Assembly: GCA_965223855.1 (NCBI GenBank)
Contig: CBDCXM010000009.1
Span: 336,142-400,141 of the forward strand
Source: Candidatus Multivoradales bacterium
GTDB lineage: Bacteria > Acidobacteriota > Thermoanaerobaculia > Multivoradales > JAHEKO01
Direction of reading: 5' to 3'
DNA length: 64,000 nucleotides
The notes beneath the pieces were generated by a model. The model did no database searches and was not told where the DNA came from. It saw only the letters and a program-made list of their open reading frames with translations. Of this stretch, positions 11,839-56,769 are shown one piece after another. Position numbers and translations under genes: made by a program. The stretch's first letter is position 1, and every line of letters begins with the position of its first letter.

Positions 11839-11973
11839 CCTAGAACGAGGCCGCAGAGACTTCGGTCGAAGTTCTCGGAACTTTCCCCTCCGAGGTCGCG
11901 TACTCAACTACAGAGCAGCAGTTGTGCTGACACCGCCGGCGGCTGGGAGACCGCCACGAAAAGGGTCGAGACA

Positions 11974-13218: not shown

Positions 13219-13229
13219 GGAGCGAAGCC

Positions 13230-16520: not shown

Positions 16521-16548
16521 CCGCCGGCCGATCGACAAGGAAGCCGCG

Positions 16549-25003: not shown

Positions 25004-26404
25004 TCAGTCCCCCCGGGTCTCGCGCTCCTGGAAGCGCTCGGCGAGCGAGCGCAGGAAACCGCTGACCCACGGCTTGATGGCGTCGAGCTCCTCGAGCAGC
25101 TGGTCGCGGCTGACCCGCTCGACGACCGTCTCTTCGAGCGTCACGACGCTCGCGGTGCGCGGCTCCGAGGTCATGATCGCCGTCTCGCCGAAGCACTCGC
25201 CCGGCCCGATGGTGCGGAGCGACACCTTCTCCCCGTCGATCTCCTTGAACACCTCGCACGAGCCGCTGGCGATGATGTAGGCGTGCTCGCCGGGGTCCCC
25301 CTCCCGCATCAGCAGATGCCCCGCCTCGAAGGTCTCGAGCGGCAGGCTGCCGCCGCGCATGAAGCCGACGATGTCCTGACGCAGCTCGACGACCGTCTGC
25401 TGCCTGTCCTCGGGTTTGCGCGCCATCGCTTTCTCGAGGATCCGCACCAGCTCGCGCGGTGCTCCGGCATCGTCCGGCAGCGGGGTGAAGTGGCGCTGGC
25501 GGGCCCGCAGGATCACCGTCTCGCTGGTGCGCCCCTCGTAGGGCGGCCGGCGGGCGACGAGGAAGTAGAGCATCGCGCCGACGGCGAAGATGTCCGCCCG
25601 GGCGTCCATCTCTCCCCCGGCCGCCTGCTCGGGCGACATGTAGCCCGGGGTACCGATGACCCTCCGCCCCCAGATCCGGGTGAACGTGCTCGACACCGGG
25701 TCGTCGATCTTCGCCAGCTCGCCGTCGGGGTCCGCCAGCCTCGCCAGCCCCCAGTCGACCAGGTAGACCTCGCCGAACTCCCCCACCATGACGTTCTCCG
25801 GCTTGACGTCGCGATGGACGACCCCTCGCTTGTGGGCGAAGGCGAGGGCGTTGCAGACCTTGACGACCACCTCCAGGAGGTCGAAGAGGGCGCCCCGCTC
25901 GATCGGCCCGGGCGGCAGCTCACGGACGAGCTCGGCGTAGGTCCGCCCCTCGAGGAGCTTCATCGTGAAGTGGAGCCGCCCGTCCTCGGTCCTTCCCAGA
26001 TCGTGGACCGGCACGATGTTGGGATGCTGCAACTGACCGGTGATCTGAGCCTCCCTCAGGAACGACTGGACCGCCTGGCGTTCGTCCTCCATCTCCGTCC
26101 GCAAGAGCTTCCGCGCCAGCCGGCGCCTCAGGGTGCGGTCGTGCAGCAGCTCGACGATCGCCATCCCGCCGCTGCCGATCTCCTCGCCCGTCTCGAAGCG
26201 CTCCTCGTCAGGCGGCAGGACGTTGGCCACCAGATCCGCCTTCGCCCGTTCGTCGAGCCGTTCCGGGGGGTCGTCGCGGGAACCGAGGAGACGCTTGAAC
26301 CAACCCTTCCGCGCACCGGAACCCTCCACGCGCGTCCCCTCGAGCACGGTCGCCGTACCGCCGTGTGTGCCCGATCCGGAACCGCTGGAGCGACCTTTCG
26401 TCAC
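25004..26404 (-). CDS. Ser/Thr protein kinase with C-terminal cyclic-nucleotide-binding (CAP-like) domain
   Basis: Kinase subdomains (GSGGMAIV, HRDVKPEN, DWG, GTPGYMSPE), then a cNMP-binding domain (FGETAIM...RTASV). GTG start. Confidence 0.75.
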   Translation of the reverse strand: MTKGRSSGSGSGTHGGTATVLEGTRVEGSGARKGWFKRLLGSRDDPPERLDERAKADLVANVLPPDEERFETGEEIGSGGMAIVELLHDRTLRRRLARKLLRTEMEDERQAVQSFLREAQITGQLQHPNIVPVHDLGRTEDGRLHFTMKLLEGRTYAELVRELPPGPIERGALFDLLEVVVKVCNALAFAHKRGVVHRDVKPENVMVGEFGEVYLVDWGLARLADPDGELAKIDDPVSSTFTRIWGRRVIGTPGYMSPEQAAGGEMDARADIFAVGAMLYFLVARRPPYEGRTSETVILRARQRHFTPLPDDAGAPRELVRILEKAMARKPEDRQQTVVELRQDIVGFMRGGSLPLETFEAGHLLMREGDPGEHAYIIASGSCEVFKEIDGEKVSLRTIGPGECFGETAIMTSEPRTASVVTLEETVVERVSRDQLLEELDAIKPWVSGFLRSLAERFQERETRGD

Positions 26405-26507
26405 CGGCGAATCGTATCAACGGCTTCGCCCCACGACTGTGGCAAACGAGGCTTCTCTCGCGACCTGCGCCAGGTCGTCGTCTCCCCGTCTCGTAACATG
26501 GCCGACA

Positions 26508-28685
26508 GTGAAGAAACGAGCCAAGGCCGGGGCTCCGAGCGCCCTGCGCGACTGGGCGCCGGTGGGCCTTTCGCTGGTGCTCCTCGTCGCCGCTATCGTC
26601 GCGACGGTCGCCGAGCCGACCGCGATGACGACCCTGCGTCACGCGGCGTTCGACGCCTACCAGCGCCTGCAGCCCCGCGAGTACCGGCCGGCCCCGGTGC
26701 GGGTGATCGACATCGACGAGGAGAGTCTCGACCGGCACGGCCAGTGGCCGTGGCCGCGGACGACGCTCGCCACGTTGATCGAACGGCTCGACGAAGCCGG
26801 AGCGCGCTCGATCGCCCTCGACGTCATGCTCGCCGAGCCGGACCGCACCTCGCCACAGCTCGCGCTCGAGAGTTGGGCCGCGGACCCGGCCGTCCGGGAC
26901 CTGGTGGCGCGCCTGCCCGATCACGACGAGGCTCTCGAGAAGAGGCTCGCCGCCTCGCCGGTAGTCACCGGCTTCATCCTCGATCAGGAGACCCAGGGAG
27001 AGACGCCGCTCGAGAAGGGGAGGATGGTGCTCGCCGGCGATCCGGCCGCCGCCTTCCTGCCGCCGTTTCGCGGTGCCGTCACCTCTCTGCGAGCGTTCGA
27101 GGCCGCGGCGGCGGGCAACGGTGCCCTCAACATGATCCCGAGCAACGACGGCATCGTCCGTCAGCTGCCCCTGTTGCTCGGCCACGGCGGAGCGGTGCGG
27201 CCCGGTCTGGCCGCCGAGGCTCTGCGGGTCGCCGAGGGCGCCGACAACTACGTCGTCAAGGCGTCGGGGGCGAGCGGCGAGGGGCGCTTCGGCGGCCGCA
27301 CCGGCATTGTCAACGTGCGGATCGGCGACCTCGAGCCGATCGTCACCGACGCGCGCGGCGCTGTCTGGCTCCACTACTCGGACCCGGTCCCCGAGCGCAC
27401 GCTCCCGGCCTGGAAGGTGCTGGCGGGCGACGTCCCGGAAGGCGCTCTCGAAGGGGGCATCCTCTTCCTCGGCACCTCCGCCGCGGGCCTCCACGACCTG
27501 CGCCTCGACCCACTCGGCCGGATCGCCCCGGGAGCAGAGGTGCACGCCCAGGGGATCGAGCAGATCCTGCAGGGGACCTATCTGACGAGGCCCGACTGGG
27601 CGCGGGCGGCCGAGATCCTCTTCATGGTGGCGATGTGGTTCGTGCTCGTCGCGCTGATCCTGCGCTTCGGCGCGCTGCCGGCGGCGGTGATCGGCATCGC
27701 GACGATCGCCGCCGCCTACCTCGGCTCGTGGTTCGCTTTCGATCGTCTGCGGCTGCTGCTCGATCCAACCTTTCCCTCGCTGTCGGCGCTGTCGATCTAC
27801 TTTGTCTGCTCGGTGGCGCAGCACTGGCGCGCGGAGCGCGATCGCACCTGGATCCGCGACGCCTTCTCGAGCTATATCTCGCCCAATCTCGTCCGGCACC
27901 TGATCGACAACCCCGGCGATCTCGCTCTCGGCGGCGAGCGACGCGAGTGCAGCTTCGTGATGACCGACCTCGAGTCGTTCACCACACTGGTCGAGAACCT
28001 CGAACCGACGGTCGCCGTCAGCCTGCTCAACGAGTACCTCGACGGCATCGTCGACATCGCGCTGGCGCGCGACGGCACCATCGACCGCATCGTCGGCGAC
28101 GCGGTAGCGGTGATGTTCTCGGCGCCGGCGGTGCAGCCCGACCACGCCGAACGCGCCGTCGCCTGCGCCCTCGAGATCGACGCGTTCGCCCGGCGCTTCA
28201 GCGCCGCCAGGGGCGAGCAGGGGGTCGAGGTCGGGCGGACGCGGATCGGCGTCAACACGGGCGTCGTCACCGTCGGCAACGTCGGCGGCGACCGGATCGT
28301 CGACTATCGTGCCCTCGGCGATCCGGTCAACACGGCCGCACGCCTCGAGACGGTCAACCGACACCTCGGTACCAACGTCTGCGTGAGCGCGGCGACCGTC
28401 GCCGCCTGCCCCGACTTCCACGGCCGCCCGATCGGACGCCTCCTGCTCAAGGGGAAATCCGAGGCGGTCGAGGCGTTCGAGCCGCTGTCGCGGGAAGAGG
28501 CGGCGGGGGCTTCGAACACGGCCTATCTGCGGGCGTTCGCCCTGATGGAGGAGGAGGCGGCGGAGGCCCCCGCCGCCTTCGACCGACTGCGGCAGCAACA
28601 CCCCGACGACCCCCTGGTCGCCCTCCACGCCGATCGCCTCGCCGCCGGCGAGACCGGCTCGACCATCGCCTTCTCCGAGAAGTAG
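26508..28685 (+). CDS. CHASE2 sensor-domain adenylate/guanylate cyclase
   Basis: GTG 26508 (alternative ATG about 110 nt downstream). N-terminal TM, periplasmic CHASE2-like domain, three TM helices, class III cyclase domain (FVMTDLESFT, RIGVNTGVVTVGNVG). The ORF-track start at 26133 is antisense to the kinase gene. Confidence 0.75.
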   Translation: MKKRAKAGAPSALRDWAPVGLSLVLLVAAIVATVAEPTAMTTLRHAAFDAYQRLQPREYRPAPVRVIDIDEESLDRHGQWPWPRTTLATLIERLDEAGARSIALDVMLAEPDRTSPQLALESWAADPAVRDLVARLPDHDEALEKRLAASPVVTGFILDQETQGETPLEKGRMVLAGDPAAAFLPPFRGAVTSLRAFEAAAAGNGALNMIPSNDGIVRQLPLLLGHGGAVRPGLAAEALRVAEGADNYVVKASGASGEGRFGGRTGIVNVRIGDLEPIVTDARGAVWLHYSDPVPERTLPAWKVLAGDVPEGALEGGILFLGTSAAGLHDLRLDPLGRIAPGAEVHAQGIEQILQGTYLTRPDWARAAEILFMVAMWFVLVALILRFGALPAAVIGIATIAAAYLGSWFAFDRLRLLLDPTFPSLSALSIYFVCSVAQHWRAERDRTWIRDAFSSYISPNLVRHLIDNPGDLALGGERRECSFVMTDLESFTTLVENLEPTVAVSLLNEYLDGIVDIALARDGTIDRIVGDAVAVMFSAPAVQPDHAERAVACALEIDAFARRFSAARGEQGVEVGRTRIGVNTGVVTVGNVGGDRIVDYRALGDPVNTAARLETVNRHLGTNVCVSAATVAACPDFHGRPIGRLLLKGKSEAVEAFEPLSREEAAGASNTAYLRAFALMEEEAAEAPAAFDRLRQQHPDDPLVALHADRLAAGETGSTIAFSEK

Positions 28686-29540: not shown

Positions 29541-30215
29541 TCAGCGCACCCTGACGACGACCCTGCGATTCCGCGGTTCGCGCACCCCGTCTCCCGTCGG
29601 CACCGCCGGTTGCGATTCACCGAACGCCTCGATGGCGATCGCCGCTGCAGGGACACCGGCCTCGATCAGCCTGTCGCGCACCGCTTCGGCCCGTCGCCGC
29701 GACAGGCCGTCGTTGAGCGTCTCGGTCCCCGAAGTGTCGGTGTGACCGGCCACCCGGATCGCCGCAGTCGCACGCTGTCGGAGGTCTTCGAGCAGCTCGT
29801 CCATCGCCCCGTCCGCCCCGCCCGCCAGCCGGGTCGTGCCGAGCTCGAAGAGGACGGTCCAGTCCGTCGGAGCGGGAGGCTCGTGCTCGATCGCCGGAGA
29901 AAAGCCGAGCTCGAGCCCGTCGACCTCCACCGTGCGGATGTCACTCAGATCGTCGAAGGAGACCGCCTCGTAGGCGGAGTCGAGCAGCGCGCTCTCGCCG
30001 TCGCGCGTCACTTCGATCGCGCCGACAGTGCCGTCCTCGTCGGGCAGCAGGACGACGTACTGGCGCCATTCGGGCTCCTCCTCGACCGGCTCTTCGCCAC
30101 CAAGGAGCGGCAGCACCACCGAGTCAGGCGGCCACCAGTGGACCGGCACCCGCTGCGCGGCACAACCTGGAAGCAGGAGAGCTCCGATCAGCACGACCGC
30201 CCGCGCTCGGTTCAT
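29541..30215 (-). CDS. OmpA-family peptidoglycan-binding lipoprotein
   Basis: Lipobox LLLPGC. C-terminal OmpA_C-like domain (RVAGHTDTSGTETLNDGLSRRRAEAV, NRRVVVRV). Confidence 0.65.
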   Translation of the reverse strand: MNRARAVVLIGALLLPGCAAQRVPVHWWPPDSVVLPLLGGEEPVEEEPEWRQYVVLLPDEDGTVGAIEVTRDGESALLDSAYEAVSFDDLSDIRTVEVDGLELGFSPAIEHEPPAPTDWTVLFELGTTRLAGGADGAMDELLEDLRQRATAAIRVAGHTDTSGTETLNDGLSRRRAEAVRDRLIEAGVPAAAIAIEAFGESQPAVPTGDGVREPRNRRVVVRVR

Positions 30216-30658
30216 TCGGCTGCGCTCTCCAACCTCACGAGAAATCGCGTGCCTCGGATCCCGATCGTGCCGACCGGGGTCTCCACGTTCGCCGATTCGG
30301 GCGACAGCTTGGCGATCAGGCCGGAGACGTAGAGCAGCGTGCCGCGGGCGAGGCGGGAGAGGAACGCCCCCTCGCTCGCACCCGCCTCGTAGACGTACTC
30401 GTCGATCGTGAGACTGGTGTCGGGGCCGATCGACAGTCGGGAGTCGTCGATGAACAGCACCCCCAGGGCGCCGTCGGATCCGGTCTCCAGGGTGTCGTCC
30501 TGGAACACCGCGGCGCCCAGCTCGGCAGCGCTGCGCTCCCCGCCCGACACGATGAAGGCACTTCCACTCAACTCCTTGACGTGGCCGACGGGCTCGGACG
30601 CCGCGACGGCACCGGCCGAGAGGACCACGAGAACCAACCAGAGACGGCGATGCATCAC
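30212..30658 (-). CDS. FecR-domain secreted protein
   Basis: Signal peptide. FecR-like beta-sandwich sequence (SGSAFIVSGGERSAAELGAAVFQDDTLETGSDGALGVLFID). ATGA overlap with the OmpA-like gene. Confidence 0.55.
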   Translation of the reverse strand: MMHRRLWLVLVVLSAGAVAASEPVGHVKELSGSAFIVSGGERSAAELGAAVFQDDTLETGSDGALGVLFIDDSRLSIGPDTSLTIDEYVYEAGASEGAFLSRLARGTLLYVSGLIAKLSPESANVETPVGTIGIRGTRFLVRLESAAE

Positions 30659-30784: not shown

Positions 30785-32596
30785 ATGGCAGATATGGCAG
30801 GTCACACCACAGGCCGCGTCCTCCTCGCCATCGCGCTCGTCGCGGTGATGGCGCCCGCTGCCTGGTCCCAGGAGGAGACGGCGCCGGTCCGCACCGCCGA
30901 CGAGGAGCACGCGGCGCTCTTCCTCGAAGACCGCTTCCCGGCCGCCACGACCTGCGCCACCTGTCACCCCGACCACTACCGCGAGTGGTCGGTGTCGCCG
31001 CACGCCTACGCGCAGATGAGCCCCGTTTTCAACGCCATGCACGGGACGATTCTCAAGCTGACCAACGGCACGAACGGCGACTTCTGCATCCGCTGCCACA
31101 CGCCGGTGGGGATGAACCTCGGCGAGCCCGAGTTCATGAGCAACATGGACCGCCACCCGACCTCGCGGGAAGGGGTCACCTGCATCGTCTGCCACCGGGT
31201 CAATCGCGCCTACGGCAAGCTCAGCGGACGGCTGGCGATCGTCGAGGGCGACGTCTTCGACACCGTCTACGGACCGACCGGAGGCGAGGAGCTCGAGCGG
31301 GTGATCGACAGCTCCGAGTTTCGCGTCAACACCGAGCGGGGGCAGGCCGGGCGGGCGATCCACGCCGAGGCGGAGCCGTTCTTCCAACTCCGAGAGGCGG
31401 GCATCTGCGGAACCTGCCACGACGTCAACCTGGTGAACGGCTTCCGTCTCGAGGAGGCGTTCAGCGAGTTCAAGACGTCACCGGCCGCGCGCCGGGGGGT
31501 GACGTGCCAGGACTGCCACATGGGGACGGAGCCGGGAATCGCCTCCGGGTTCCGCCAGGGGCCGGCGGCAATGATCGGCACCCGGCCGACCGCCGAGCGC
31601 CGGCTCACGAATCACATGTTCATCGGGCCGGATTACTCGATCGTCCACCCGGGGATCTTCCCGCACAACACCCGGGCCTCCGAACTGGCGACGATCCGCG
31701 ACTGGCTCCAGTTCGACTGGGAAGCGGGCTGGGGCACCGACGCCTTCGAGCTCGAAGCGCCGGAGGACTACGAGTTCCCCGAGGTGTGGGCCTCCGCCGA
31801 CGACCGCTACGACGCCCGCGACATCCTCGACGCCAACCTCACGCTGCTCGACGAGGCCAACCAGGCGCGCCTCCAGCTGCTGCGCGCCGGTTACGTTCTC
31901 GGGGACACGAAGGTCGAGAAGAAGGGTCGCGGGCTCGCCTTCTCGATCGAAGTCCGCAACGCCACCGACGGTCACGGCGTGCCGACCGGCTTCGACGCCG
32001 AGAGGCTCGTCTGGCTCGAAGTGACGGTCGCGGACGCGGACGGCGAGGTCGTCTTCCGCTCCGGCGATCTCGACCCGAACGGCGACGTGCGCGACCTGCA
32101 CTCCCTCTACGTCCACAACGGCGAGCTGCCTCTCGACCGCTACCTCTTCAGCCTCCAGTCGAAGTTCCTGACCCGGATGGTGCGGGGCGGCGAGCGCGAG
32201 CAGGTGCTGGCGATCAACTACTCGCCCGACCCTCTGCCGTTCCTGCGACCCTCGGTCACCTCGACGATCCTCACCGGGAGACCTCGCGGCGCCCGCAAGC
32301 ACAAGCAGAACCTCGCTCCGCTCGGTCACCGCGTGGCGCGCTACGAGGTGCCGGCGGCCAAGCTCACCGGGCGCCCGCCGTACCGGGCCACGTTCCGGCT
32401 CAAGGCGGCGATGGTGCCGGTGAATCTGGTCCACGAAATCAAGGACGTCGGGTTCGACTACTTCATGAGCGCTCGCGACGTCGCCGAGCGAGTGGTGGCA
32501 GGCCATCTCGTCCTCTGGGAACGACAGCTCGCCCTCGAAGACGGTGCCGAACCGCCCCAAGCCGAAGAAGCCGTGGATGCCGCCGCGTCGCCCTAG
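30785..32596 (+). CDS. multihaem c-type cytochrome, 5 CxxCH sites, periplasmic
   Basis: Signal peptide. CATCH, CIRCH, CIVCH, CGTCH and CQDCH were counted directly in the translation. Confidence 0.75.
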   Translation: MADMAGHTTGRVLLAIALVAVMAPAAWSQEETAPVRTADEEHAALFLEDRFPAATTCATCHPDHYREWSVSPHAYAQMSPVFNAMHGTILKLTNGTNGDFCIRCHTPVGMNLGEPEFMSNMDRHPTSREGVTCIVCHRVNRAYGKLSGRLAIVEGDVFDTVYGPTGGEELERVIDSSEFRVNTERGQAGRAIHAEAEPFFQLREAGICGTCHDVNLVNGFRLEEAFSEFKTSPAARRGVTCQDCHMGTEPGIASGFRQGPAAMIGTRPTAERRLTNHMFIGPDYSIVHPGIFPHNTRASELATIRDWLQFDWEAGWGTDAFELEAPEDYEFPEVWASADDRYDARDILDANLTLLDEANQARLQLLRAGYVLGDTKVEKKGRGLAFSIEVRNATDGHGVPTGFDAERLVWLEVTVADADGEVVFRSGDLDPNGDVRDLHSLYVHNGELPLDRYLFSLQSKFLTRMVRGGEREQVLAINYSPDPLPFLRPSVTSTILTGRPRGARKHKQNLAPLGHRVARYEVPAAKLTGRPPYRATFRLKAAMVPVNLVHEIKDVGFDYFMSARDVAERVVAGHLVLWERQLALEDGAEPPQAEEAVDAAASP

Positions 32597-34022
32597 GGGC
32601 TTGCTGAGGAACCCTCGTGGGTCGCGCGCCGGCCTCATCTTCGCCGCCGCGACGCTGATGGCGACGGCGATCGGCGCCGCCGAGCCTCCCACCGAGGGAG
32701 ACGGCGAGAGCGCGAGCCGCCTCACCGACGAGGCGATCCCACTGCAGGTCGATGCGGTACCCGAGCGGCCGAAGCCGCCCCTCGAGCTCGGCGAACCGTT
32801 CCTCGGCACCGGCACCCTGCGCCCCGGCTTCCGACTGCCGACCGGCGCCGTGTGGCAGCCGGCGCTCGTCGCTTTCGGCTCCCTGAGGACCGCGGCCCAG
32901 AGCTTCGACTCCGGCGCCGGCAGGGTGAGCGAGCTCGTCGCCCGGTTGGACCTCTTCGCCAACCTTCAGCTCTCGGGAACGGAGCGCGTGGTCGTCGGCT
33001 TCCGGCCGCTCGACCGCGACGGTCGCTTCACCTCGTACGTCTTCTCGAGCGACGTCCCGGGGATCGAGGACGGGTCCCGCGACGAGTGGAACGGCGAGGT
33101 GACGAGCGTCTACTTCGAGGGAGACTTCGGCGAGATCTTCCCCAATCTCTCGAAGGACGACTTCAGCCGCACCGACGTAGGTTTCTCGGCCGGCCGTCAG
33201 CCGCTGATCTTCCAGGAAGGGATGCTGATCAACGACTCGATCGACGGCATCGGGTTGACCCGCAACACGCTTCAGCCGGGCAATCTGTCGAACTTCCGCG
33301 CCACGCTCTTCCTCGGCTTCGACGAGGTCGGCCGGCCCGACCGCATCGACGACGACGCGCGGCTCGTCGCGCTCCTGACCTCGACCGATACCAGGAGGTC
33401 GACCTGGGACGTCGATCTCGCGTGGGTGGAATCGCAGGTCGAGGGAGACCTCCTGGCCGGCGGGATCAGCGCGATTCAGAGACTCGGGCACTACAACACC
33501 GCGTTTCGACTGCTCGGCTCTTCAGCCCTCGACCGGGAAAGCGACCTCGTCTCCGACGGCTGGCTGCTGCTCAACGAGGTGTCGTGGACGCCGCACCACA
33601 GCCACGACCTCGTCTACGTCAACACCTTCGTCGCCGCCGACCGCTTCTCGTCCGCGGCGCGCGGGCCGAGCACCGGAGGCCCGCTCGGGCGCGCGGGCAT
33701 CAACTTCGCTGCCGTCGGGCTGGGCAACTACGGCGCGGCGCTGAGCTCGGAGGCCGAGGACGTCGCCGGCGCGGCGGTCGGCTACCAGCGCTTCTTCGAT
33801 CACACCCGCAAGCAGCTCCTCGTCGAGGCTGGCGCGCGTCTCGGCACCCGTTCCGGGAGCGCCGACTCCGCCGCCGTCACCGTGCGGTTTCAGACCGCGC
33901 TCAAGCGCCACTACGTGCTGGTGCTCGATGCCTTCGGCGGCTACCGCGACCCGGGACCCGCAGCACCCGGCGGCCGGCAGGAGCTACTCGGTGCGCGGGT
34001 CGAACTGGTGACGAAGTTCTGA
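32577..34022 (+). CDS. outer-membrane beta-barrel (porin-like) protein
   Basis: ATG 32577 (alternative GTG 32544). N-terminal signal peptide. Alternating amphipathic strands. C-terminal residue is Phe (TKF), as in bacterial OMPs. Overlaps the upstream cytochrome by 20 nt and the downstream one by ATGA. Confidence 0.55.
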   Translation: MPPRRPRGLLRNPRGSRAGLIFAAATLMATAIGAAEPPTEGDGESASRLTDEAIPLQVDAVPERPKPPLELGEPFLGTGTLRPGFRLPTGAVWQPALVAFGSLRTAAQSFDSGAGRVSELVARLDLFANLQLSGTERVVVGFRPLDRDGRFTSYVFSSDVPGIEDGSRDEWNGEVTSVYFEGDFGEIFPNLSKDDFSRTDVGFSAGRQPLIFQEGMLINDSIDGIGLTRNTLQPGNLSNFRATLFLGFDEVGRPDRIDDDARLVALLTSTDTRRSTWDVDLAWVESQVEGDLLAGGISAIQRLGHYNTAFRLLGSSALDRESDLVSDGWLLLNEVSWTPHHSHDLVYVNTFVAADRFSSAARGPSTGGPLGRAGINFAAVGLGNYGAALSSEAEDVAGAAVGYQRFFDHTRKQLLVEAGARLGTRSGSADSAAVTVRFQTALKRHYVLVLDAFGGYRDPGPAAPGGRQELLGARVELVTKF

Positions 34023-36061
34023 TGGCGGCCGCCCGCCTCCTCGGCCCGGCGGTGGCCGGTCTGCTCGCGATCGGCCCGGTGGCGGCGGCCGAGACCCCGG
34101 CGGCGCGCGACCCGGCGAAGATCGTCACCGCCGAGGCGTGCGGCGAGTGCCATCTCGAGGAGTTCGAGGTGTGGAAGACGACGCCTCACGCACTCGGCTT
34201 CAAGTCGCTCCACCGCAGCGCCGACGCTGAAGAGATCGCGCGCAAGATGGGTCATCGGCTCATCAAGCGCGACAGCCCCTGCCTCGAATGTCACTACACG
34301 ACGGCACTCGACGGCGAGCGCGAACGCGCGGTGTCGGGAGTGTCGTGCGAGTCGTGCCACGGCGCCGGCCGCGACTGGATCGAGGTACACAACGACTACG
34401 GCCCCGACGCCACCTTCGCCACCGAGACCGACGCCCACCGCGAGCAGCGAATCGCCGCCAGCCGAGCGGCCGGGATGCTGCGGCCGACCGACCTCTACGA
34501 GGTGGCCGCCAACTGCTTCGGCTGCCACACGGTGCCCAACGAGGAGCTCGTCAACGTCGGCGGCCACACGACGGGCAGCATCGGCTTCGAGCTGGTCGAG
34601 TGGTCGCAGGGCGAGATCCGGCATAACTTCGTCGCGGCGCAGCGGGGCGGGAGCAAGGAGAACGTCGAGCGCTCCGACGAGCGCAAGCGGCTGATGTACG
34701 TCGTCGGCCGATCGCTCGAGCTCGAGTACGCGCTGCGCGGACTCGCCAAAGCGACCGAGGACGGGGCCTACGCGAAGTCGATGATCCGCAAGGTTCGCAA
34801 CGCGGTTGCCGAGGTCGGCGACATCGCGGCGGTCACGACCCTCGCGCCGGTCAACACCATGACCGCCGCGGTGCGCGAAGCCCGGGTCAGCCAGGGGAAC
34901 GCAGCCGAGCTGCTGGCCGCCGCCGATCGGGTGAGCGCGGCGACCAGAGCGCTGCTCCGGGAGCCGGCCGGCGCGCAGGTGGCGGCCCTCGATCCTCTGA
35001 GACTCGGCCAGCCGCTCCCGGGGACGGATCAACTCGCCGAGGACGAGCGCGAGGGCCTCGAGGACCCCGTCGAGGGCGCGGCCGAGACCGTCCCGGCGGC
35101 CGTCGCCGCGGCGGCCGCACCCGGAGAGCCCGGCGCCACCACCGCCGGCGCCGGCAGCGGTCGGAGCGTGCCCGACTACGCTCGCAAGACCCGGCTGCGA
35201 CCGACCTCGCCGCACCGCACGATCGACGCCGGCGCGTGCAGCGGCTGCCACGAGGAGCAGAACGCCTGGTGGTTCGACGACCCTCACTACGCCGCCGCCG
35301 AGCCGTTTCACGAGGGCGATCCGAAGAACGCCCAGATCGCCCGGCTCTACGGGCTCGCGGCCGGCGAGGCGACCAGGGGAAACCAGCTGTGCATGGACTG
35401 TCACGGCACGGTCGTCACCGGCAAGGAGCGCCGCGAAGTGTGGGACGGGGTGAGCTGCCAGAGCTGCCACGGTGGCGCCGCCGACTACCTCGAGCCGCAC
35501 AAGGAAGGGGACGAGACGGCCGGAGATCAGCGCAGCGGCTACCTCGCCGCACTCGGTCTCGGCATGAAGGAGCTGCGTCGTCCCGAGGTGCGGGCGCGCA
35601 ACTGCGCGAGCTGCCACTACATCACCGACCCGCGTCTGATCTCCGCCGGGCACCCGACCGGCAGGGACTTCCGGATCGTCGAGCGGATGCCGCGGATTCG
35701 CCACTGGGAGCGGGCCGATCTCGACGCCTCCGCCCTCGAGAGCGCCTTCCGCGACGAGGTGGCACGGCGAGGAGCGATTCCCGAGGTTGTCCTCGCCTCG
35801 CTGCCGGCGGGAGAGTCGCCGCTCGCCGCCGCTGCGACGGCGACGCGGACCCGCCGCGCGGGAGGGGGCTCCCGCCCCGTCAGAGCCCTGCCGCCGCGAC
35901 AGCGACCGGTCGATCCGATCGCCATCCCGGACCCTGCGAGCGTCGGCCCGCTCGACCTCCCCCCCTTCGACCCTCCGGCGGACGACGCGCCGCTCGAGGA
36001 GGTCCTGGCGCTGATTCAGCAGCGACTCGCCCTCATCTACGAAAACGTTCAGGAGCCGTGA
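34022..36061 (+). CDS. multihaem c-type cytochrome, 8 CxxCH sites
   Basis: Signal peptide. CGECH, CLECH, CESCH, CFGCH, CSGCH, CMDCH, CQSCH and CASCH were counted directly. Confidence 0.75.
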   Translation: MAAARLLGPAVAGLLAIGPVAAAETPAARDPAKIVTAEACGECHLEEFEVWKTTPHALGFKSLHRSADAEEIARKMGHRLIKRDSPCLECHYTTALDGERERAVSGVSCESCHGAGRDWIEVHNDYGPDATFATETDAHREQRIAASRAAGMLRPTDLYEVAANCFGCHTVPNEELVNVGGHTTGSIGFELVEWSQGEIRHNFVAAQRGGSKENVERSDERKRLMYVVGRSLELEYALRGLAKATEDGAYAKSMIRKVRNAVAEVGDIAAVTTLAPVNTMTAAVREARVSQGNAAELLAAADRVSAATRALLREPAGAQVAALDPLRLGQPLPGTDQLAEDEREGLEDPVEGAAETVPAAVAAAAAPGEPGATTAGAGSGRSVPDYARKTRLRPTSPHRTIDAGACSGCHEEQNAWWFDDPHYAAAEPFHEGDPKNAQIARLYGLAAGEATRGNQLCMDCHGTVVTGKERREVWDGVSCQSCHGGAADYLEPHKEGDETAGDQRSGYLAALGLGMKELRRPEVRARNCASCHYITDPRLISAGHPTGRDFRIVERMPRIRHWERADLDASALESAFRDEVARRGAIPEVVLASLPAGESPLAAAATATRTRRAGGGSRPVRALPPRQRPVDPIAIPDPASVGPLDLPPFDPPADDAPLEEVLALIQQRLALIYENVQEP

Positions 36062-36062
36062 C

Positions 36063-37697
36063 GTGAGCGAGCCGTTCGAACCGGGCAAGACCGTGCTCAA
36101 GCAGATCGAGCAGTACGGCGACCGCTGGAGCGCCTACGGCGCGAGCGAGAGCATCGTCTCGATCTCCGACAGGCTCACCCTCGAGGAGATGAGGGAGATC
36201 GACGTCTTCTCCGACTACGACGACTCGTTCCTCGAGAAGATCCGCTCCGACGTCTCGGTGGCGGTGTGGAAGCCGGACTCGGTGCTGTTCGAGGAAGGGA
36301 GCTACATCGACCTCGCCTTCGTCGTCCTCGAGGGAGAGGTCGAGACCTTCGTCGCCGGGATCGGCAAGGGTGAAGCGACGCCGCAGCCGATCTTCGACGC
36401 CACACGCACCGTGCTGGGCGACGCCGAGACCACCCTGGCGGCCGAGCGCACCACACTGATGCCGACGCTCTCGCCGCCGAGGCGGGCGCCGAAGGAGATC
36501 ACGCTCCTCGCTTCGATGGACTTCGACATGCCGCGCGAAGGCACCGTGAGACTCGGCCCCGGCGAGGTGTTCGGCGAGATCGGCGCCCTGAGCGGCTGGC
36601 CTCAGTCGGTGACGGCACGGACCGTGACCGAGTGCCGTCTGGTGCAGATCCGGATCAACGCGCTCAGGCTGATGAAGCGCAAGTCCGCGGCACTCAAGGA
36701 GCGCCTCGACGAGCGCTACCGCGAGCGCTCGCTGAGCGCGCAGCTGCGGACGACGCCGCTCCTGAGGCGCTCGAGCCCGCTGGTGATCGAGGCGCTCAAG
36801 GACGAGGTCGAGCTCGTCTCCTGCGAGCCGGGAGAGACGGTGCTCACCCACGGCGACGAGCCCGACGCGCTCTATCTGGTGCGCTCCGGCTTCCTCAAGC
36901 TGCTGCAGCCGCTGGCCGACGGTCAGATCGCCGTCTCGTACCTGTCGAAGGGGATGACCCTCGGCGAGGCGGAGCTGCTGCTGCCCGAGATCGACGGCTG
37001 GCAGGTCAGCGCCGAATCGGTCGAGTACAGCGAGCTGGTGCGGATCCCGGCACCGGTCTTCGACAATCTCCTGCGCAACGAGCCGCTGATCGAAGCCGAT
37101 CTTTGGGCGTCGGCTCAGGAGCGCATCCGCGAGTCCGGCTTCGCGCGGCGGCACATCGGTCACGCGGAGTTCCTCCAGGAGGCGCTCGACACCGGGCTCG
37201 TTCAGGGCAACAGCATCCTGGTGATCGACCTCGAATCCTGCACCCGATGCGACGACTGCGTGCGCGCCTGTGCCGACACGCACGAGGGGCGCCCCCGCTT
37301 CGTGCGCGAGGGAGACAAGTACGCCAACCTCCTGATCGCCAAGTCCTGCTACCACTGCCGGGATCCGGTCTGTCTCGTCGGCTGCCCGACCGGCGCGATC
37401 CATCGCGCCGGGCTGAGCGATGTCGTCGAGATCGAAGACGAAATCTGTATCGGCTGCGCGAGCTGTTTCCGCAACTGCCCGTACGACGCGATCGTCATGC
37501 ACGAGACCGGCGACCTGTGGCCGGACGACATGATCCCGGTCGGGCTGCGAGGGCGCGATCGCCAGGTCGCCAGCAAGTGCGACCTTTGTGCCGACACCGG
37601 TCACGGGCCGGCGTGTGTCAGCAACTGCCCTCAGGGTTGCGCCTACCGGGTCGGATCGCTGGAGGAGTTCCAACGGCTGATGAGCGGGGAGAGCTAG
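36063..37697 (+). CDS. tandem cyclic-nucleotide-binding domains fused to a 2x[4Fe-4S] ferredoxin-type domain
   Basis: GTG start 1 nt after the cytochrome stop. Two CAP-like cNMP-binding segments (GEVFGEIGAL; LGEAELL). Cys clusters CTRCDDCVRAC, CYHCRDPVCLVGCP, CIGCASCFRNCP and CDLCAD. Confidence 0.7.
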   Translation: MSEPFEPGKTVLKQIEQYGDRWSAYGASESIVSISDRLTLEEMREIDVFSDYDDSFLEKIRSDVSVAVWKPDSVLFEEGSYIDLAFVVLEGEVETFVAGIGKGEATPQPIFDATRTVLGDAETTLAAERTTLMPTLSPPRRAPKEITLLASMDFDMPREGTVRLGPGEVFGEIGALSGWPQSVTARTVTECRLVQIRINALRLMKRKSAALKERLDERYRERSLSAQLRTTPLLRRSSPLVIEALKDEVELVSCEPGETVLTHGDEPDALYLVRSGFLKLLQPLADGQIAVSYLSKGMTLGEAELLLPEIDGWQVSAESVEYSELVRIPAPVFDNLLRNEPLIEADLWASAQERIRESGFARRHIGHAEFLQEALDTGLVQGNSILVIDLESCTRCDDCVRACADTHEGRPRFVREGDKYANLLIAKSCYHCRDPVCLVGCPTGAIHRAGLSDVVEIEDEICIGCASCFRNCPYDAIVMHETGDLWPDDMIPVGLRGRDRQVASKCDLCADTGHGPACVSNCPQGCAYRVGSLEEFQRLMSGES

Positions 37698-37700
37698 GCC

Positions 37701-38531
37701 TTGACTCACCGCCACCGCAGCGCGCGCCGGTCGAGGGCGGCCGTGATCGCGGCCTCCGTCGCCGCGCTCGCAGTGGTCGTCTACGTCGGCGGCGCGACCC
37801 TGTGGGAGGTGGCTCCGGGAACTCCGTTGAGCATCGGCTTCGGTGTCGCGGCGGCGATCCTCCTTCTCGGGGCAGCCCTCTACGGCGCGCGGCGGCGACT
37901 CGTACGCCTCGCCTCGCGACGCAGCCTCGGGACAGCCTCGAGCTGGCTCGCCTTTCATCTCTACGGCAGCCTCCTCTTCCTGCTGCTCGTGCACCTCCAC
38001 TCCGGCTTCGCCGTTCCGAGCGAAGGGGTGACCTGGTGGCTGTGGGCACTCTCCTGGTGGACGGTCGTCACGGGGGTCGCCGGTCGGCTGCTGCAACTGT
38101 GGATCCCCAGAGCGCTCGGCTCGGGCCTGTCGGTGGAGGTGCTCTACGAGCGCATCCCCGAGCTGATCGAGGAGCTGCGCGAACGGTCGGAGACTCTCGC
38201 CGCCACTTGCGACGAGTCGGTGCAGAATCTCTACTCCAACCAGGTGGCGAAGCAGCTCACGGGGCCGAGGCGCCGCTGGATCTACTTCGTCGATCCGGCC
38301 GGCGGAGCGCGGTCGCAACTGCGTGAGTTCGACTACCTGCGCACGATGCTGCCGCCGGAGGAGCAGGACAAACTCGATCGACTGGCGGGGTACCTGCGCA
38401 CGAAGCTCGAATTCGACGCTCACTACACCCTGCAGGGAGTGCTGCGCTCGTGGCTGTGGATCCACGTCCCGCCGTCGCTGGCGGTGCTCGCCCTGGTCAT
38501 CGTCCACGTCTTCGCGGTCACCTACTACTGA
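37701..38531 (+). CDS. integral membrane protein, putative dihaem b-type cytochrome (quinol-interacting subunit)
   Basis: TTG start 3 nt after the preceding stop. About 5 TM helices. Two helices each carry a His-x13-His pair (H86/H100 and H255/H269), the bis-His spacing seen in cytochrome b and NarI-type dihaem proteins. Confidence 0.45.
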   Translation: MTHRHRSARRSRAAVIAASVAALAVVVYVGGATLWEVAPGTPLSIGFGVAAAILLLGAALYGARRRLVRLASRRSLGTASSWLAFHLYGSLLFLLLVHLHSGFAVPSEGVTWWLWALSWWTVVTGVAGRLLQLWIPRALGSGLSVEVLYERIPELIEELRERSETLAATCDESVQNLYSNQVAKQLTGPRRRWIYFVDPAGGARSQLREFDYLRTMLPPEEQDKLDRLAGYLRTKLEFDAHYTLQGVLRSWLWIHVPPSLAVLALVIVHVFAVTYY

Positions 38532-38546
38532 TGGCGGACTCACACG

Positions 38547-40127
38547 ATGGCGGCTAAGCGTCGGCAGGGGAAGGGCTCCTACGGCCGCTGGCAACTGCCG
38601 GTGGCGAGGCGCTATCTCGTCCCGGGGTCGAGGGGGCGTCGGATGGTCCTGGCGGCCGCGCTCTTCGCGCTCATCCTGGCCGCGGTGGCGGCAGACTTCC
38701 GGCTGCGGCGCGGCAAGGCGCTCTCCAAGGGCGCGCTGTCGTCGCACCACGCCCTCCAGGAGCAGGACTGCGCCTCCTGCCACGTCGAGTTCGATGCGGT
38801 GAGCGACGACCGCTGCTCCTCGTGCCACGAGAAGTTCGGCGATCAGCTCGGCGTCTACACCTTCGCCGCTCACTACCTGTACCGGTCGACCGACTTCCAG
38901 CGCGTCGTCGCCTCGGAACACGAGCTGCCGTGCTCCTCCTGCCATCTCGAGCACGCGGGGCGCGAAGCTCAGATCACCCGCGTACCGGATTCGCGCTGTC
39001 TCGACTGTCACGAATACGGCGCCTTCGGCGACGACCACCCGGAGTTCGCCTTCGCGCGGGAGGAGGCCGCCGAGGCGGGCGGCCTGCACTTCCCTCACAT
39101 CGAGCACATTCGCGAAGTGATGGCGCAGCAGAACCTGCACGACGTCGAGCGGTCGTGCCTCTACTGTCATCGGCCGGAGGCGGACGGGCGCTCGTTCCAG
39201 CCGATCGAGTTCGATCTCCATTGCGACTCCTGCCACCTCACGACGACTACGGCGACGCCGCGGCTGCCGATCGCAGGAGAGGCGGGCGAGGAGGATGGTC
39301 CCGGAGTCGAGACGCTGGAAGCAATCCGCGCTCGCGGCGGCCCGGGCACGGAGTGGGCCTACTACACGAACCCCAACGAGTTCCGCCGCACCGGGCCGCG
39401 GATCCTCAAGTCGCCGCTGCATCACGAGGATCCATGGATTCTCGACAACCTGCGCCGGCTGCGGCGCGAGCTCTATCCCGACGCCGGGCTCGCCGACCTC
39501 CTGACCGCCTCCCCCGATGCCCCGGTGCATCGATTGAGCGAGGTCTACGGCGAGGCGATCGCCACCCTGCAGTCACAGGTCGACGGCCTGCGTGCCCGCC
39601 CCGAGCCGGAGATCCAACGTGACCTCGCGAAGCTCTCCGCGCTCCTGACCGAGGCGGAGCGGAGCCTCCTCGATCCCTATACCCCCCTCGACGAGACCGA
39701 GTTCCAGCTCGCCCTCGAGCGACCCGATCCGAATCTGTCGGCGGAGCAAGTCGACTCGATCGACCGCCTCGCCGACGAGCTGACGACGCCGTGCCGCCAG
39801 TGCCACATCGTCGAGAACGCCACCCTCGCCCGGGTCCAGACCGATCAGCGGACTCTCCTGAGCGCCGAGTTCGACCACCGCGCCCACATCCTCCAGCGGC
39901 GCTGTCTCGACTGCCATCGCGAGATCCCCGTACTCGAGCACCTGAACTCCCCCGAGCCGGTCGATCCCGCGATCGACAACGCCGGCATTCACAACCTGCC
40001 GCGCATCGAAGCGTGCCGGGAGTGCCACCAGCCGCGCCAGGTCTCGGACCGCTGCGTCACCTGCCACGTCTTTCATCCGGACAAGAACCGGCGATCGGAA
40101 CTGCTGCTCTACCTGGAGACCGGCTGA
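38547..40127 (+). CDS. membrane-anchored multihaem c-type cytochrome, 10 CxxCH sites
   Basis: N-terminal TM anchor (MVLAAALFALILAAVAADF). Ten CxxCH motifs were counted (CASCH, CSSCH x2, CLDCH x2, CLYCH, CDSCH, CRQCH, CRECH, CVTCH). Confidence 0.75.
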   Translation: MAAKRRQGKGSYGRWQLPVARRYLVPGSRGRRMVLAAALFALILAAVAADFRLRRGKALSKGALSSHHALQEQDCASCHVEFDAVSDDRCSSCHEKFGDQLGVYTFAAHYLYRSTDFQRVVASEHELPCSSCHLEHAGREAQITRVPDSRCLDCHEYGAFGDDHPEFAFAREEAAEAGGLHFPHIEHIREVMAQQNLHDVERSCLYCHRPEADGRSFQPIEFDLHCDSCHLTTTTATPRLPIAGEAGEEDGPGVETLEAIRARGGPGTEWAYYTNPNEFRRTGPRILKSPLHHEDPWILDNLRRLRRELYPDAGLADLLTASPDAPVHRLSEVYGEAIATLQSQVDGLRARPEPEIQRDLAKLSALLTEAERSLLDPYTPLDETEFQLALERPDPNLSAEQVDSIDRLADELTTPCRQCHIVENATLARVQTDQRTLLSAEFDHRAHILQRRCLDCHREIPVLEHLNSPEPVDPAIDNAGIHNLPRIEACRECHQPRQVSDRCVTCHVFHPDKNRRSELLLYLETG

Positions 40128-40465
40128 TGGGAGCGCGGCTGCTGTGCAAGACCGGCAAGCTGGAGGGGCTCGAGTTCTCGCTCGGCGAAGAGACGACCGT
40201 GGGTCGCCGCCGCTCGAGCGACGCGGTGGTCGACGCCCCCGGGGTTTCGGGCACGCACGCGACGATCCGCTGGTCGGAGGAGGGCGGCCGCTACGAGCTC
40301 GAGGACCTCGGCAGTACCAACGGCACCCTGCTCGACGGCGTCCCCGCCCAGGGCATCGAGCCTCTCGGGACCCTGCACGTCATCACCTTCGGGCGGCACC
40401 ACAGCTTCATCTTCGTGTGGGACGGCGCGACCCCGACCGGCACGACGAGCGCCGAGGAGGAGTAG
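40127..40465 (+). CDS. small FHA-domain protein
   Basis: ATGA overlap with the decahaem gene. FHA signature (TVGRRRSSDAVVDAPGVSGTHATI...DLGSTNGTLLDG). 112 aa. Confidence 0.6.
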   Translation: MGARLLCKTGKLEGLEFSLGEETTVGRRRSSDAVVDAPGVSGTHATIRWSEEGGRYELEDLGSTNGTLLDGVPAQGIEPLGTLHVITFGRHHSFIFVWDGATPTGTTSAEEE

Positions 40466-40519
40466 GCCGCTCTCCCCCCCTCGGCCTCGGCCCCTCGGAG
40501 AACTCCGAGCCCGGGCTCG

Positions 40520-41017
40520 TCAGGACTCTCGCGAATCGGGCGGCGAATCGGGCTTGGCCTTCTTGAGGAAGCGCAGCGTCAAGAAGTTGGCGAGCGTGAG
40601 CGCAACGGCGATCTCGAAACGCCCGACCGCGACCGCCACGCCGACCGCGGCGGTACTCCAGATGCTCGCCGCGGTCGCCGTGCCGTGTACGGTCACTCCG
40701 CGCTTGACGATCGCCCCACCACCGAGGAAACCGACCCCGGTCAGCAGCCCCTGGATGATCCTGCCGAGTTCCGGGCTGGCGTTGCCGAGCACCGAGCGCG
40801 CCAGCAGCACATAGGCGGTGCTCGCCATCGCCACCAGCGGGAAGGTGCGCAACCCGAGACTGCGCTCCTCCTGTTCGCGGTCCCACGCGATCGGCAACGC
40901 AAGCAGAAACGAAGCGCCGAGCAGCAGGAGGTGCTCCAGGACGCTCGCCGGATCGACCAGTTCGCTCAAACCGTCTCCTCCCCCGCTCCCTCGCCGCTCA
41001 TCATGTCGGCGATCCAC
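40520..41017 (-). CDS. MgtC/SapB-family membrane protein
   Basis: MgtC-like TM core (GLLTGVGFLGGGAIVKRG, IWSTAAVGVAVAVG). The start may lie downstream of 41017, because that start overlaps the MarR gene end by 52 nt. Confidence 0.55.
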   Translation of the reverse strand: MDRRHDERRGSGGGDGLSELVDPASVLEHLLLLGASFLLALPIAWDREQEERSLGLRTFPLVAMASTAYVLLARSVLGNASPELGRIIQGLLTGVGFLGGGAIVKRGVTVHGTATAASIWSTAAVGVAVAVGRFEIAVALTLANFLTLRFLKKAKPDSPPDSRES

Positions 41018-55949: not shown

Positions 55950-56094
55950 CGGGAAGACCTCCACATGGTGAGTGAATCGGACGGCGATCGTACCGTGCCG
56001 ATTCGTCGTGGCTGCGGCACGGGTACACTGCACCTCCCATTCCGGGCGCGGTCTGCGGAACCGACTGCGCTCCTGCGGGAGAGGAGACGAATCG

Positions 56095-56646: not shown

Positions 56647-56769
56647 CCGGCGGTCGATGCCGGTCCGCATGCGGCGAGCCGCCTGCTAGAATCGGGCAGG
56701 TCGCTTTCCCCGGAAGACGCATCCGCGCCCTCCGAATCCACACCTCCAAGAGCCCACAAGGAGTCGCAC

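Follow-up and report, generated by a model that had tools for sequence, protein, structure and literature searches.

A variant ptd operon in a Candidatus Multivoradales bacterium and its possible role as a cytoplasm-fed electron chain across the cell envelope

Introduction

The ptdABCDEFG operon was named, on bioinformatic grounds, in a 2023-24 preprint (bioRxiv 10.1101/2023.11.21.568154). Its parts include a porin, an FAD/NAD(P) oxidoreductase (PtdC), a periplasmic tetrahaem cytochrome (PtdD), a 4Fe-4S protein with a cyclic nucleotide monophosphate (cNMP) domain (PtdE), a ferric-reductase-like membrane protein (PtdF) and a periplasmic decahaem cytochrome (PtdG). The same preprint describes the products as a putative porin-cytochrome complex and suggests extracellular electron transfer (EET). 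The hosts it lists are marine Alphaproteobacteria (UBA11136) and Gammaproteobacteria, Nitrospirales and Planctomycetes; it reports ptd genes from nitrite oxidisers and from an alphaproteobacterium that putatively oxidises sulfide, and ptdAB are reported to be highly transcribed in situ. No follow-up literature on ptd was found. Here we describe a cluster of seven genes at positions 30785-40465 of a 64,000-nucleotide (nt) window, the whole stretch of DNA that was analysed, from Candidatus Multivoradales bacterium (contig CBDCXM010000009.1, assembly GCA_965223855.1; all coordinates are those of the window). The cluster matches the published description and is a variant of this already named operon.

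Related parts are found in other described systems. The extHIJKLMNOPQS cluster of Geobacter sulfurreducens encodes the porin ExtI, ExtKL, the 12- and 10-haem cytochromes ExtM and ExtN, the Rieske protein ExtO, the cytochrome b ExtP, and ExtS. ExtI has been reported as weakly phosphate-porin-like and also as a selenite-uptake porin. ExtKL is MccSep, a periplasmic tetrameric pentahaem polysulfide reductase in which haem 2 is ligated by His and Cys and in which Sec325, located in a D-G-U-P loop of an Ig-like domain, is essential (PMC13510729). The 'PHC' family takes in both Geobacter ExtKL and the pentahaem cytochrome c552 (PMC11976967). Geobacter Cbc4 is made up of CbcS, the four-cluster protein CbcT, and CbcU. 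Syntenic clusters of multihaem cytochromes plus a barrel are also on record from marine Thermoanaerobaculia metagenome-assembled genomes and from the Fe/Mn-reducing isolate Thermoanaerobaculum aquaticum, where they have been proposed to reduce metal oxides; their identity with the cluster described here is unconfirmed.

A conserved seven-gene operon

The region can be read as a ptd-type operon whose products form one electron chain across the whole envelope, fed from the cytoplasm and ending at the mouth of a channel. We hold this reading tentatively, at slightly under an even chance. The parts themselves, their cofactor motifs, conservation, synteny, fusions and predicted folds were seen directly. 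The open reading frames (ORFs) were listed and translated, and seven lie on the plus strand one after another. They encode a PtdA-like pentahaem c-type cytochrome (30785..32596, 603 amino acids (aa)), a PtdB-like outer-membrane beta-barrel (32577..34022, 481 aa), a PtdD-like soluble periplasmic octahaem cytochrome (34022..36061, 679 aa), a PtdE-like cytoplasmic protein with two cNMP-fold domains and Fe-S domains (36063..37697, 544 aa), a PtdF-like five-helix inner-membrane protein (37701..38531, 276 aa, or 262 aa by the database start), a PtdG-like decahaem c-type cytochrome with an N-terminal membrane anchor (38547..40127, 526 aa) and a protein with a single FHA domain (40127..40465, 112 aa, PF00498 at E 1.4e-15). 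The junctions, in this order, are a 20-nt overlap, a TGATG (1-nt overlap), spacers of 1, 3 and 15 nt, and a second TGATG. The terminator scan gave no plus-strand terminator-like site inside 30785-40465, and the Rfam, tRNA and promoter scans gave no informative result.

Five, eight and ten CxxCH motifs were counted in the PtdA-, PtdD- and PtdG-like cytochromes. All of them are kept in homologues, which places the counts far beyond chance. Pfam and NCBIfam searches found haem domains of the c554/c7/c3 type in these three proteins; in the same searches the barrel and the five-helix membrane protein had no family match at all. Most of what the preliminary description had said of the layout is borne out: seven tightly coupled same-strand genes, 5-, 8- and 10-haem cytochromes, a membrane-anchored 10-haem cytochrome (one N-terminal transmembrane helix plus the ten CxxCH) and an FHA protein. 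The 20-nt overlap between the first two genes and the 1-nt spacer before the PtdE gene are also as it gave them, while the supposed ATGA overlaps at the second and last junctions are in fact TGATG.

Relatives of the cluster occur in at least 566 species of about eight phyla in a scan of one genome per species. The carriers include Acidobacteriota (Thermoanaerobaculia, Vicinamibacterales, Holophagae), Bacteroidota (Rhodothermales, Salinibacter, Chitinophagales, Ignavibacteria), KSB1, Zixibacteria, Gemmatimonadota and Nitrospirota, among others. Synteny was counted by tblastn of the window proteins against 82 fetched loci, and only loci with enough flank were counted. A PtdF homologue lies beside the PtdE homologue in 72 of 76 loci, PtdG in 65 of 70 and PtdD in 63 of 66. 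Downstream, an FHA gene comes after PtdG in 55 of 67 loci, and a flavoprotein gene is present in 47 of 57. The PtdA and PtdB genes are found together upstream in 28 of 51 loci, and one without the other in a single locus. Gene order is retained across phyla, and the seven genes are one real, conserved operon unit.

Loci of Ignavibacteria, Chitinophagales, Zixibacteria and KSB1 that lack PtdA and PtdB carry a different upstream set (L021 126-6503, L026 1721-9997, L035, L051, L076 and others). The substitute set consists of a protein of about 530 aa (with an HbpS-like haem-degrading domain in L026), a protein of about 580 aa with no Pfam match, a decahaem protein of about 1240 aa with LVIVD beta-propeller repeats, and a single-module c554-like cytochrome. 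Because loci without PtdAB carry this other set, the core from PtdD to the FHA gene combines with more than one kind of outer module. A gene of 1061 aa with CarboxypepD_reg repeats lies on the opposite strand in one genome of 9.3 Mb (L002 4573-7758, minus strand) and splits PtdA-PtdB from PtdD-G, so the two halves of the cluster can be separate transcription units.

The flavoprotein encoded downstream in most loci is about 760 aa long and has a Pyr_redox_2 domain, two FHA domains and a 2Fe-2S ferredoxin (Fer2) domain. Since this type differs from the PtdC of the alphaproteobacterial operons, two unrelated NAD(P)-type flavoproteins have been recruited to the same core. Ser/Thr kinase genes come after the flavoprotein gene, and in some loci a PP2C phosphatase as well. 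Homologues of the FHA protein are mostly 290-360 aa long and usually have two FHA domains (two in L001), compared with 112 aa and one FHA domain here. About 55 bp separate the stop codon of the FHA gene from a convergent MgtC gene (40127-40520). The short FHA gene, the small gap to MgtC and the missing flavoprotein suggest that in this genome the cluster has been truncated or rearranged at its 3' end.

The pentahaem cytochrome and the barrel

The PtdA-like protein has a Sec signal peptide with no lipobox, an N-terminal cap with the five haems and a conserved C-terminal beta-sandwich region. Few proteins of the set are conserved as well as this one, whose identity across phyla is 57-74%. It matches PF13435 at E 9e-11. 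Its sole match in a search of PDB sequences is 5ze8 (E 5e-14), the Thermochromatium tepidum pentahaem cytochrome c552; in a profile search of the same sequences c552 is found at E 9e-14 and MccA only at E 0.09. The match to 5ze8 spans the haem region and a 'GH..PTG' loop of the C-terminal beta domain. The NCBIfam model for ExtKL, NF040886, gives a short N-terminal match of 36.7 bits against a cut-off of 250. By sequence, the protein is a member of the ExtKL/MccSep/T. tepidum c552 ('PHC') family, and like MccSep it has five CxxCH motifs and an Ig-like C-terminal domain. The conserved Sec or Cys of the D-G-U-P loop and the Cys that is the distal ligand of haem 2 are both absent. The invariant F403 stands where MccSep has Sec325, in a loop that reads P-T-G-F-D, and all ten Cys of the protein fall within CxxCH motifs; it is thus a paralogue and not an MccSep enzyme. 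An NrfA-like or MccSep-like enzyme was considered and ruled out, as there is no CxxCK, free Cys, or Sec/Cys site.

The PtdB-like protein has no Cys and ends in ...VTKF. The preliminary description had called it a barrel with a C-terminal Phe and proposed a beta-barrel prediction for 32577-34022 as a check. The AlphaFold model, built on a 45-sequence alignment (mean predicted local distance difference test (pLDDT) score 78.8, above 90 over most of the barrel), is indeed a beta-barrel, and the C-terminal residue is Phe. The barrel has about 18 strands and is closest to the OprD and AlgE channel folds; with identities of 9-12%, this likeness is one of fold class and not of family. Barrels of the Mtr/Pcc systems are wide (20-26 strands or more) and related to MtrB or OmbB, and the present barrel is not of this kind. 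It is preceded by an N-terminal extension of about 60 aa that is rich in invariant residues. Residues 34-87 have a pLDDT below 50, yet many of them are invariant.

In three independent Vicinamibacterales assemblies, two of them chromosome-level, PtdA and PtdB are fused in a single ORF of 1111-1127 aa (L059 2627-5962, L066 4363-7737, L071 4213-7596). The pentahaem cytochrome is N-terminal and the barrel C-terminal, and the cytochrome runs straight into the conserved N-terminal extension of the barrel with no signal peptide in between. These fusions support a physical coupling of cytochrome and barrel, which are encoded by two separate genes here.

The periplasmic multihaem cytochromes

The PtdD-like protein has a signal peptide and eight CxxCH motifs and matches PF13435 in two stretches (E 5e-24). 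It consists of two c554-like tetrahaem modules that arose by tandem duplication, with an Ala/Pro-rich linker between them; the identity of the two halves is 31% (E 2e-18). Apart from those of the CxxCH motifs, four His residues are invariant in each half. Loci without PtdAB have a PtdD of a single module, about 300-350 aa long.

The transmembrane segment of the PtdG-like protein (residues 30-54) is preceded by an Arg/Lys-rich N-terminus. Besides the ten CxxCH motifs there are ten invariant His residues, which implies wiring by bis-His haems throughout. The Pfam search gave no match to NapC/NirT (PF03264).

The cytoplasmic Fe-S protein and the membrane protein

The PtdE-like protein matches PF00027 in two stretches (E 1.2e-26) and also has 4Fe-4S domains. 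More than 2000 homologues are known at 59-66% identity, the best relatives being Acidobacteriota/Thermoanaerobaculia metagenome-assembled genomes. Sixteen invariant Cys residues fall into four groups (C393/396/399/403, C429/432/437/441, C462/465/468/472 and C506/509/518/522), and in NCBIfam the Fe-S module, of the DmsB/NrfC type, aligns with the four-cluster proteins DsrO, NrfC and TtrB. Together these show that the protein holds four [4Fe-4S] sites; a ferredoxin-type domain with two had been proposed previously. The two cNMP domains of that proposal are present as folds, but the built-in cyclic-nucleotide sensor that they were taken for is not supported. Binders of cyclic AMP (cAMP) and cyclic GMP (cGMP), such as CRP and PKA, carry R-[ST]-A in the phosphate-binding cassette. 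The canonical phosphate-binding Arg is missing from both domains here, which read ...GWPQSVTA... and ...GWQVSA..., that is V-T-A and V-S-A, and these motifs are conserved across the family. The ligand of the CAP-fold domains of PtdE is therefore probably not cAMP or cGMP.

There is no signal peptide and no transmembrane segment in the PtdE-like protein. In 10 loci from five lineages, and also in P0109, P0110 and P0362, PtdE and PtdF form a single ORF with PtdE at the N-terminus. PtdE is predicted to be cytoplasmic from the missing signal and transmembrane segments, from its sensor folds and from its N-terminal fusion to PtdF, which has an Arg-rich N-terminus and an Arg-rich 64-78 loop.

Five His residues of the PtdF-like protein (H86, H100, H241, H255 and H269) are invariant among 45 homologues. 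Four of them form the pairs H86-x13-H100 and H255-x13-H269, which upholds the earlier description of two His-x13-His helices, read there as a dihaem b signature. In the AlphaFold model (pLDDT 87) the pairs sit at matching depths on two long helices, 79-100 and 219-275. Two His pairs about 13 residues apart on two helices are also what is expected of ferric reductases and dihaem carriers, and the best natural structural neighbours are dihaem bundles. The two invariant pairs suggest two stacked b-type haems. Segments 1-13 and 64-78 are Arg-rich and, together with a domain of about 110 aa at 135-248, are predicted to be cytoplasmic; H86 and H255 would for this reason lie near the cytoplasm and H100 and H269 near the periplasm. 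Searched as a profile against 1.84 billion representatives, the protein has 3107 family members, of which the distant ones show no Pfam domain apart from fused PtdE parts. No cytochrome b, NrfD or FdnI/HydC match was obtained in Pfam, in NCBIfam or among the distant members, and no match to PF01794 or the b561 family.

The cytoplasmic domain contains a near-invariant D-[IV]-T-G-G motif, which here reads D-P-A-G-G (residues 196-204, window 38290-38316). The Thr of this motif could be a phospho-acceptor for the FHA proteins. Whether its loss tracks the absence of the FHA flavoprotein was tested, and no clean correlation was seen.

Proposed electron path and alternatives

The topology, direction of flow, donor, acceptor and regulation described in this section are what we infer from the parts. 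In the proposed path the four [4Fe-4S] clusters of cytoplasmic PtdE would take electrons from a cytoplasmic donor, which in most genomes is likely to be an NAD(P)H-type flavoprotein with a 2Fe-2S domain. PtdF would move the electrons across the inner membrane by way of two stacked bis-His b haems, and the membrane-anchored decahaem PtdG would receive them and hand them on to the soluble octahaem PtdD. The chain would end at pentahaem PtdA docked at the periplasmic mouth of the roughly 18-stranded PtdB. A diffusible oxidant that enters through the PtdB channel may be reduced there, in a geometry like that of ExtI-ExtKL or Cyc2; no cytochrome would be threaded through the barrel to reach minerals. 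The two CAP-fold domains of PtdE, together with phospho-threonine signalling (FHA proteins, a Ser/Thr kinase and a phosphatase), may gate the flow from the cytoplasm. A diffusible substrate that is reduced at the channel mouth is favoured over threading because the barrel is small, because MccSep and c552 provide a periplasmic precedent and because the cytochrome is N-terminal in the fusions. A cytoplasmic source of electrons is favoured because PtdF and PtdG fall outside the quinol families, because PtdE is unexported and has sensor folds, because PtdE and PtdF can be fused, and because of the flavoprotein in 47 of 57 loci.

Several points weigh against a cytoplasm-fed chain. Outward flow from the cytoplasm dissipates membrane potential, which is odd for respiration, although it would explain tight regulation. 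PtdF may have a quinone site, since one of its structural neighbours, E. coli CybB, is quinone-linked by its PDB title (superoxide oxidase). No flavoprotein homologue, neither of the Pyr_redox_2-FHA-Fer2 type nor of the PtdC type, was found in the 64-kb window, which leaves the proposed donor without a gene there. The PtdA-like protein lacks the catalytic residues of MccSep and may be a mere carrier. The AlphaFold models are free of haem and give no distances between cofactors. Finally, the preprint that named the operon calls its function 'completely unknown' (bioRxiv 10.1101/2023.11.21.568154), and the Ptd proteins are known from sequence only.

The best-surviving alternative is that of the preliminary description, in which a Cbc-like PtdEFG module oxidises menaquinol and a Pcc/Mtr-like cytochrome-in-barrel exit delivers the electrons to insoluble Fe(III) or Mn(IV) or to electrodes; we consider it unlikely. 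The parts list of PtdEFG is that of Cbc4, the order of cytochrome, barrel and cytochrome is as in Pcc systems, and PtdA is coupled to PtdB. The clusters of Thermoanaerobaculia and T. aquaticum mentioned above were proposed to reduce metal oxides, with the same reservation on their identity, and the naming preprint likewise suggests EET. The envelope-spanning chain of that description survives, as do the gene order and the coupling of cytochrome to barrel. Its quinol origin does not: PtdF belongs to no quinol-oxidase family, PtdG is not of the NapC/NirT type, and the Fe-S protein is predicted to face the cytoplasm, where NAD(P)H-type flavoproteins go with it. Membership of the Pcc/Mtr group falls as well, as the barrel is OprD/AlgE-like and the family cut-offs are missed. 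All the cytochromes score below the cut-offs of the DmsE/MtrA and OmcA/MtrC families (TIGR03508, 30.7 against 192 bits; TIGR03507, 29.7 against 209 bits). There is also no surface lipoprotein cytochrome of the MtrC/OmcA/OmcB type, and no signal-peptide region contains a Cys. The carriers, moreover, include the largely aerobic Salinibacter, Rhodothermales, Chitinophagales, Gemmatimonadota and Vicinamibacterales.

Electrons could also run the other way: a donor outside the cell or in the periplasm, for instance Fe(II) or a reduced compound of sulfur or nitrogen, would feed them inward to the cytoplasmic Fe-S protein and NAD(P)+. All-bis-His wires are reversible in principle, Cyc2, a fused cytochrome-porin with one haem and 16 strands, acts in Fe(II) oxidation, and T. 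tepidum c552 comes from a sulfur oxidiser. Such a role would suit the nitrite oxidisers and the alphaproteobacterial putative sulfide oxidiser from which ptd genes are reported. Inward movement to acceptors at about -320 mV would, however, oppose both the redox potential and the membrane voltage. A coupling site is not apparent, the cluster encodes nothing like a proton pump, and the cytoplasmic partner is a plain flavoprotein-ferredoxin fusion, which makes reverse flow very unlikely. A redox sensor, in which the haem and Fe-S wire reports the periplasmic or external redox state to the CAP folds, the FHA proteins and the Ser/Thr kinase, would account for the dense signalling content (two CAP folds, one to four FHA domains, a kinase and PP2C beside the cluster) but is hardly credible given 23 c haems, two b haems and four Fe-S clusters, far more than in any known sensor, an NAD(P)H flavoprotein that is dedicated to the chain, includes a ferredoxin domain and implies sustained flux, and ptdAB reported as highly transcribed in situ.

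If the chain is indeed fed from the cytoplasm by NAD(P)H and Fe-S proteins, it would be a third way of electron export in bacteria, besides quinol dehydrogenases and flavin-based systems, and one under kinase control. A wider proposal, possible but rather doubtful, is that PtdE, PtdF and PtdG together with the NAD(P)H flavoprotein represent a new, quinone-bypassing class of inner-membrane electron export. This class would be switched by the FHA, kinase and PP2C proteins and by a non-nucleotide ligand of the CAP folds, would be joined to interchangeable outer modules, and would occur in hundreds of mostly non-metal-respiring species. PtdEFG would then be the bacterial counterpart of NOX/FRE/STEAP, with a four-cluster Fe-S wire in place of the FNR domain, and the outer modules would be PtdAB here and the 1240-aa decahaem LVIVD protein in Bacteroidota. 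It could serve reduction under regulation, outside the cell or in the periplasm, for instance in the reductive uptake of iron, in the detoxification of oxidants or in redox dumping. There would be consequences for the scoring of 'EET potential' in metagenomes, in which clusters of this kind are taken as a sign of metal respiration. The fusions and swappable outer module offer a concrete, testable wiring.

Other genes in the window

A signalling block lies upstream of the cluster. It contains a Ser/Thr kinase gene (25004..26404, minus strand; Pkinase E 6e-38) with a canonical cNMP-binding domain (E 1e-23, cassette FGE...PRTAS) and a gene for a CHASE2 adenylate/guanylate cyclase (26133..28685, plus strand; CHASE2 E 1e-52, Guanylate_cyc E 3e-16). 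Three further genes on the minus strand, at 28687-29403, 29541-30215 and 30212-30658, encode a 238-aa protein with an H...HD-like motif and no Pfam match, an OmpA-domain protein and a FecR-domain protein. The kinase gene lies 4.4 kb upstream of the cluster, and many other loci also have Ser/Thr kinase genes beside it. The CHASE2 cyclase, FecR and OmpA genes were rejected as conserved parts, as none of the 82 loci has a homologue within 10 kb of the cluster. The kinase and the cyclase are possible local regulators outside the conserved cluster. A cascade in this genome from the cyclase through a cyclic nucleotide to the kinase, and from phospho-Thr to the FHA protein, is conceivable.

Farther from the cluster, 11368-19641 (plus strand) holds the gene for an HlyD-family membrane-fusion protein and, after it, a tandem pair of genes for AcrB-type RND transporters (1096 and 1063 aa). 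The minus-strand stretch 19826-22280, over an FG-GAP-repeat protein and an ORF with no Pfam match, has a guanine-plus-cytosine (GC) fraction of 0.62, compared with about 0.68 elsewhere, and may be foreign DNA. Three genes for PQQ/BamB-like beta-propellers (466, 736 and 491 aa) lie at 54633-60452, and several large neighbouring ORFs have no Pfam match.

Comparison with known systems

PtdF is predicted to carry electrons across the membrane with two bis-His haems, as do NOX/FRE/STEAP and cytochrome b561. It differs from these in having no PF01794 or b561 match, five helices instead of six and an inserted cytoplasmic domain of 110 aa. In Tmc and Hmc of sulfate reducers, too, an Fe-S protein of the cytoplasm is linked with a membrane cytochrome b and with a multihaem cytochrome c of the periplasm. 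In contrast to the Tmc/Hmc/Dsr group, the Fe-S partner here, PtdE, is DmsB-like and not CCG/HdrD-like. With Cbc4 the cluster shares an anchored multihaem cytochrome, a protein with four [4Fe-4S] clusters and an integral membrane subunit, and to this extent the previously noted Cbc-type resemblance holds. It does not extend to membership of a quinol oxidoreductase family: PtdG is not of the NapC/NirT type, PtdE has cytoplasmic sensor folds and no export signal, and PtdF matches no cytochrome b, NrfD, FdnI or other known quinol-binding membrane family.

On the outer side, the locus has in common with MtrCAB and OmaB-OmbB-OmcB the order of cytochrome, barrel and cytochrome and a barrel coupled to multihaem cytochromes. 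It differs in having no surface lipoprotein cytochrome and none that reaches the DmsE/MtrA or OmcA/MtrC cut-offs. The likeness to Cyc2, compared by architecture, is that the Vicinamibacterales fusions place an N-terminal cytochrome at or in the periplasmic mouth of a small C-terminal barrel; PtdA has five haems and a beta-sandwich where Cyc2 has one haem, PtdB has about 18 strands compared with 16, and the two are separate genes here. Closer still is the Geobacter ext cluster, the nearest analogue on which some experimental work exists. It likewise combines a porin with a PHC-type pentahaem cytochrome (haem cap and Ig-like stem), with multihaem cytochromes of large size and with an Fe-S/cytochrome b module in the inner membrane. 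The PtdA-like protein matches the N-terminus of the ExtKL model and has the common GH..P.G loop, but it has Phe in place of Sec325 and no free Cys as a ligand of haem 2. The inner module here is a four-cluster Fe-S/CAP protein with a novel dihaem protein, not Rieske/cytochrome b, and there is no rhodanese. ExtI is weakly phosphate-porin-like, whereas the present barrel is nearest to OprD and AlgE folds.

The closest system is the ptd operon. The PtdA-like protein has the five CxxCH motifs of a pentahaem PtdA and the match to 5ze8 described above, a porin (PtdB) lies beside it, and the order of cNMP/4Fe-4S PtdE, ferric-reductase-like PtdF and decahaem PtdG is the same. The tetrahaem module of PtdD is also present, but twice in one protein, giving eight haems. 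There is no PtdC between the porin and PtdD; the two genes overlap by 1 nt, which leaves no room for it. An FHA gene follows PtdG here, and most relatives also have the Pyr_redox_2-FHA-Fer2 flavoprotein and a Ser/Thr kinase, with or without PP2C; the preprint makes no mention of FHA. The host is acidobacterium-like and high in GC. The preliminary description had held that the combination was not a described one, which is mistaken: a cNMP/Fe-S protein with pentahaem, tetrahaem and decahaem cytochromes and a porin is ptdABCDEFG, and only the FHA and Ser/Thr-kinase layer goes unmentioned in the preprint. What is new here is this FHA/kinase layer, the fusions of PtdE to PtdF and of PtdA to PtdB, a second flavoprotein type and the count of four clusters in PtdE, together with nucleotide sites that are degenerate, the lack of the MccSep catalytic residues and an outer module that can be swapped.

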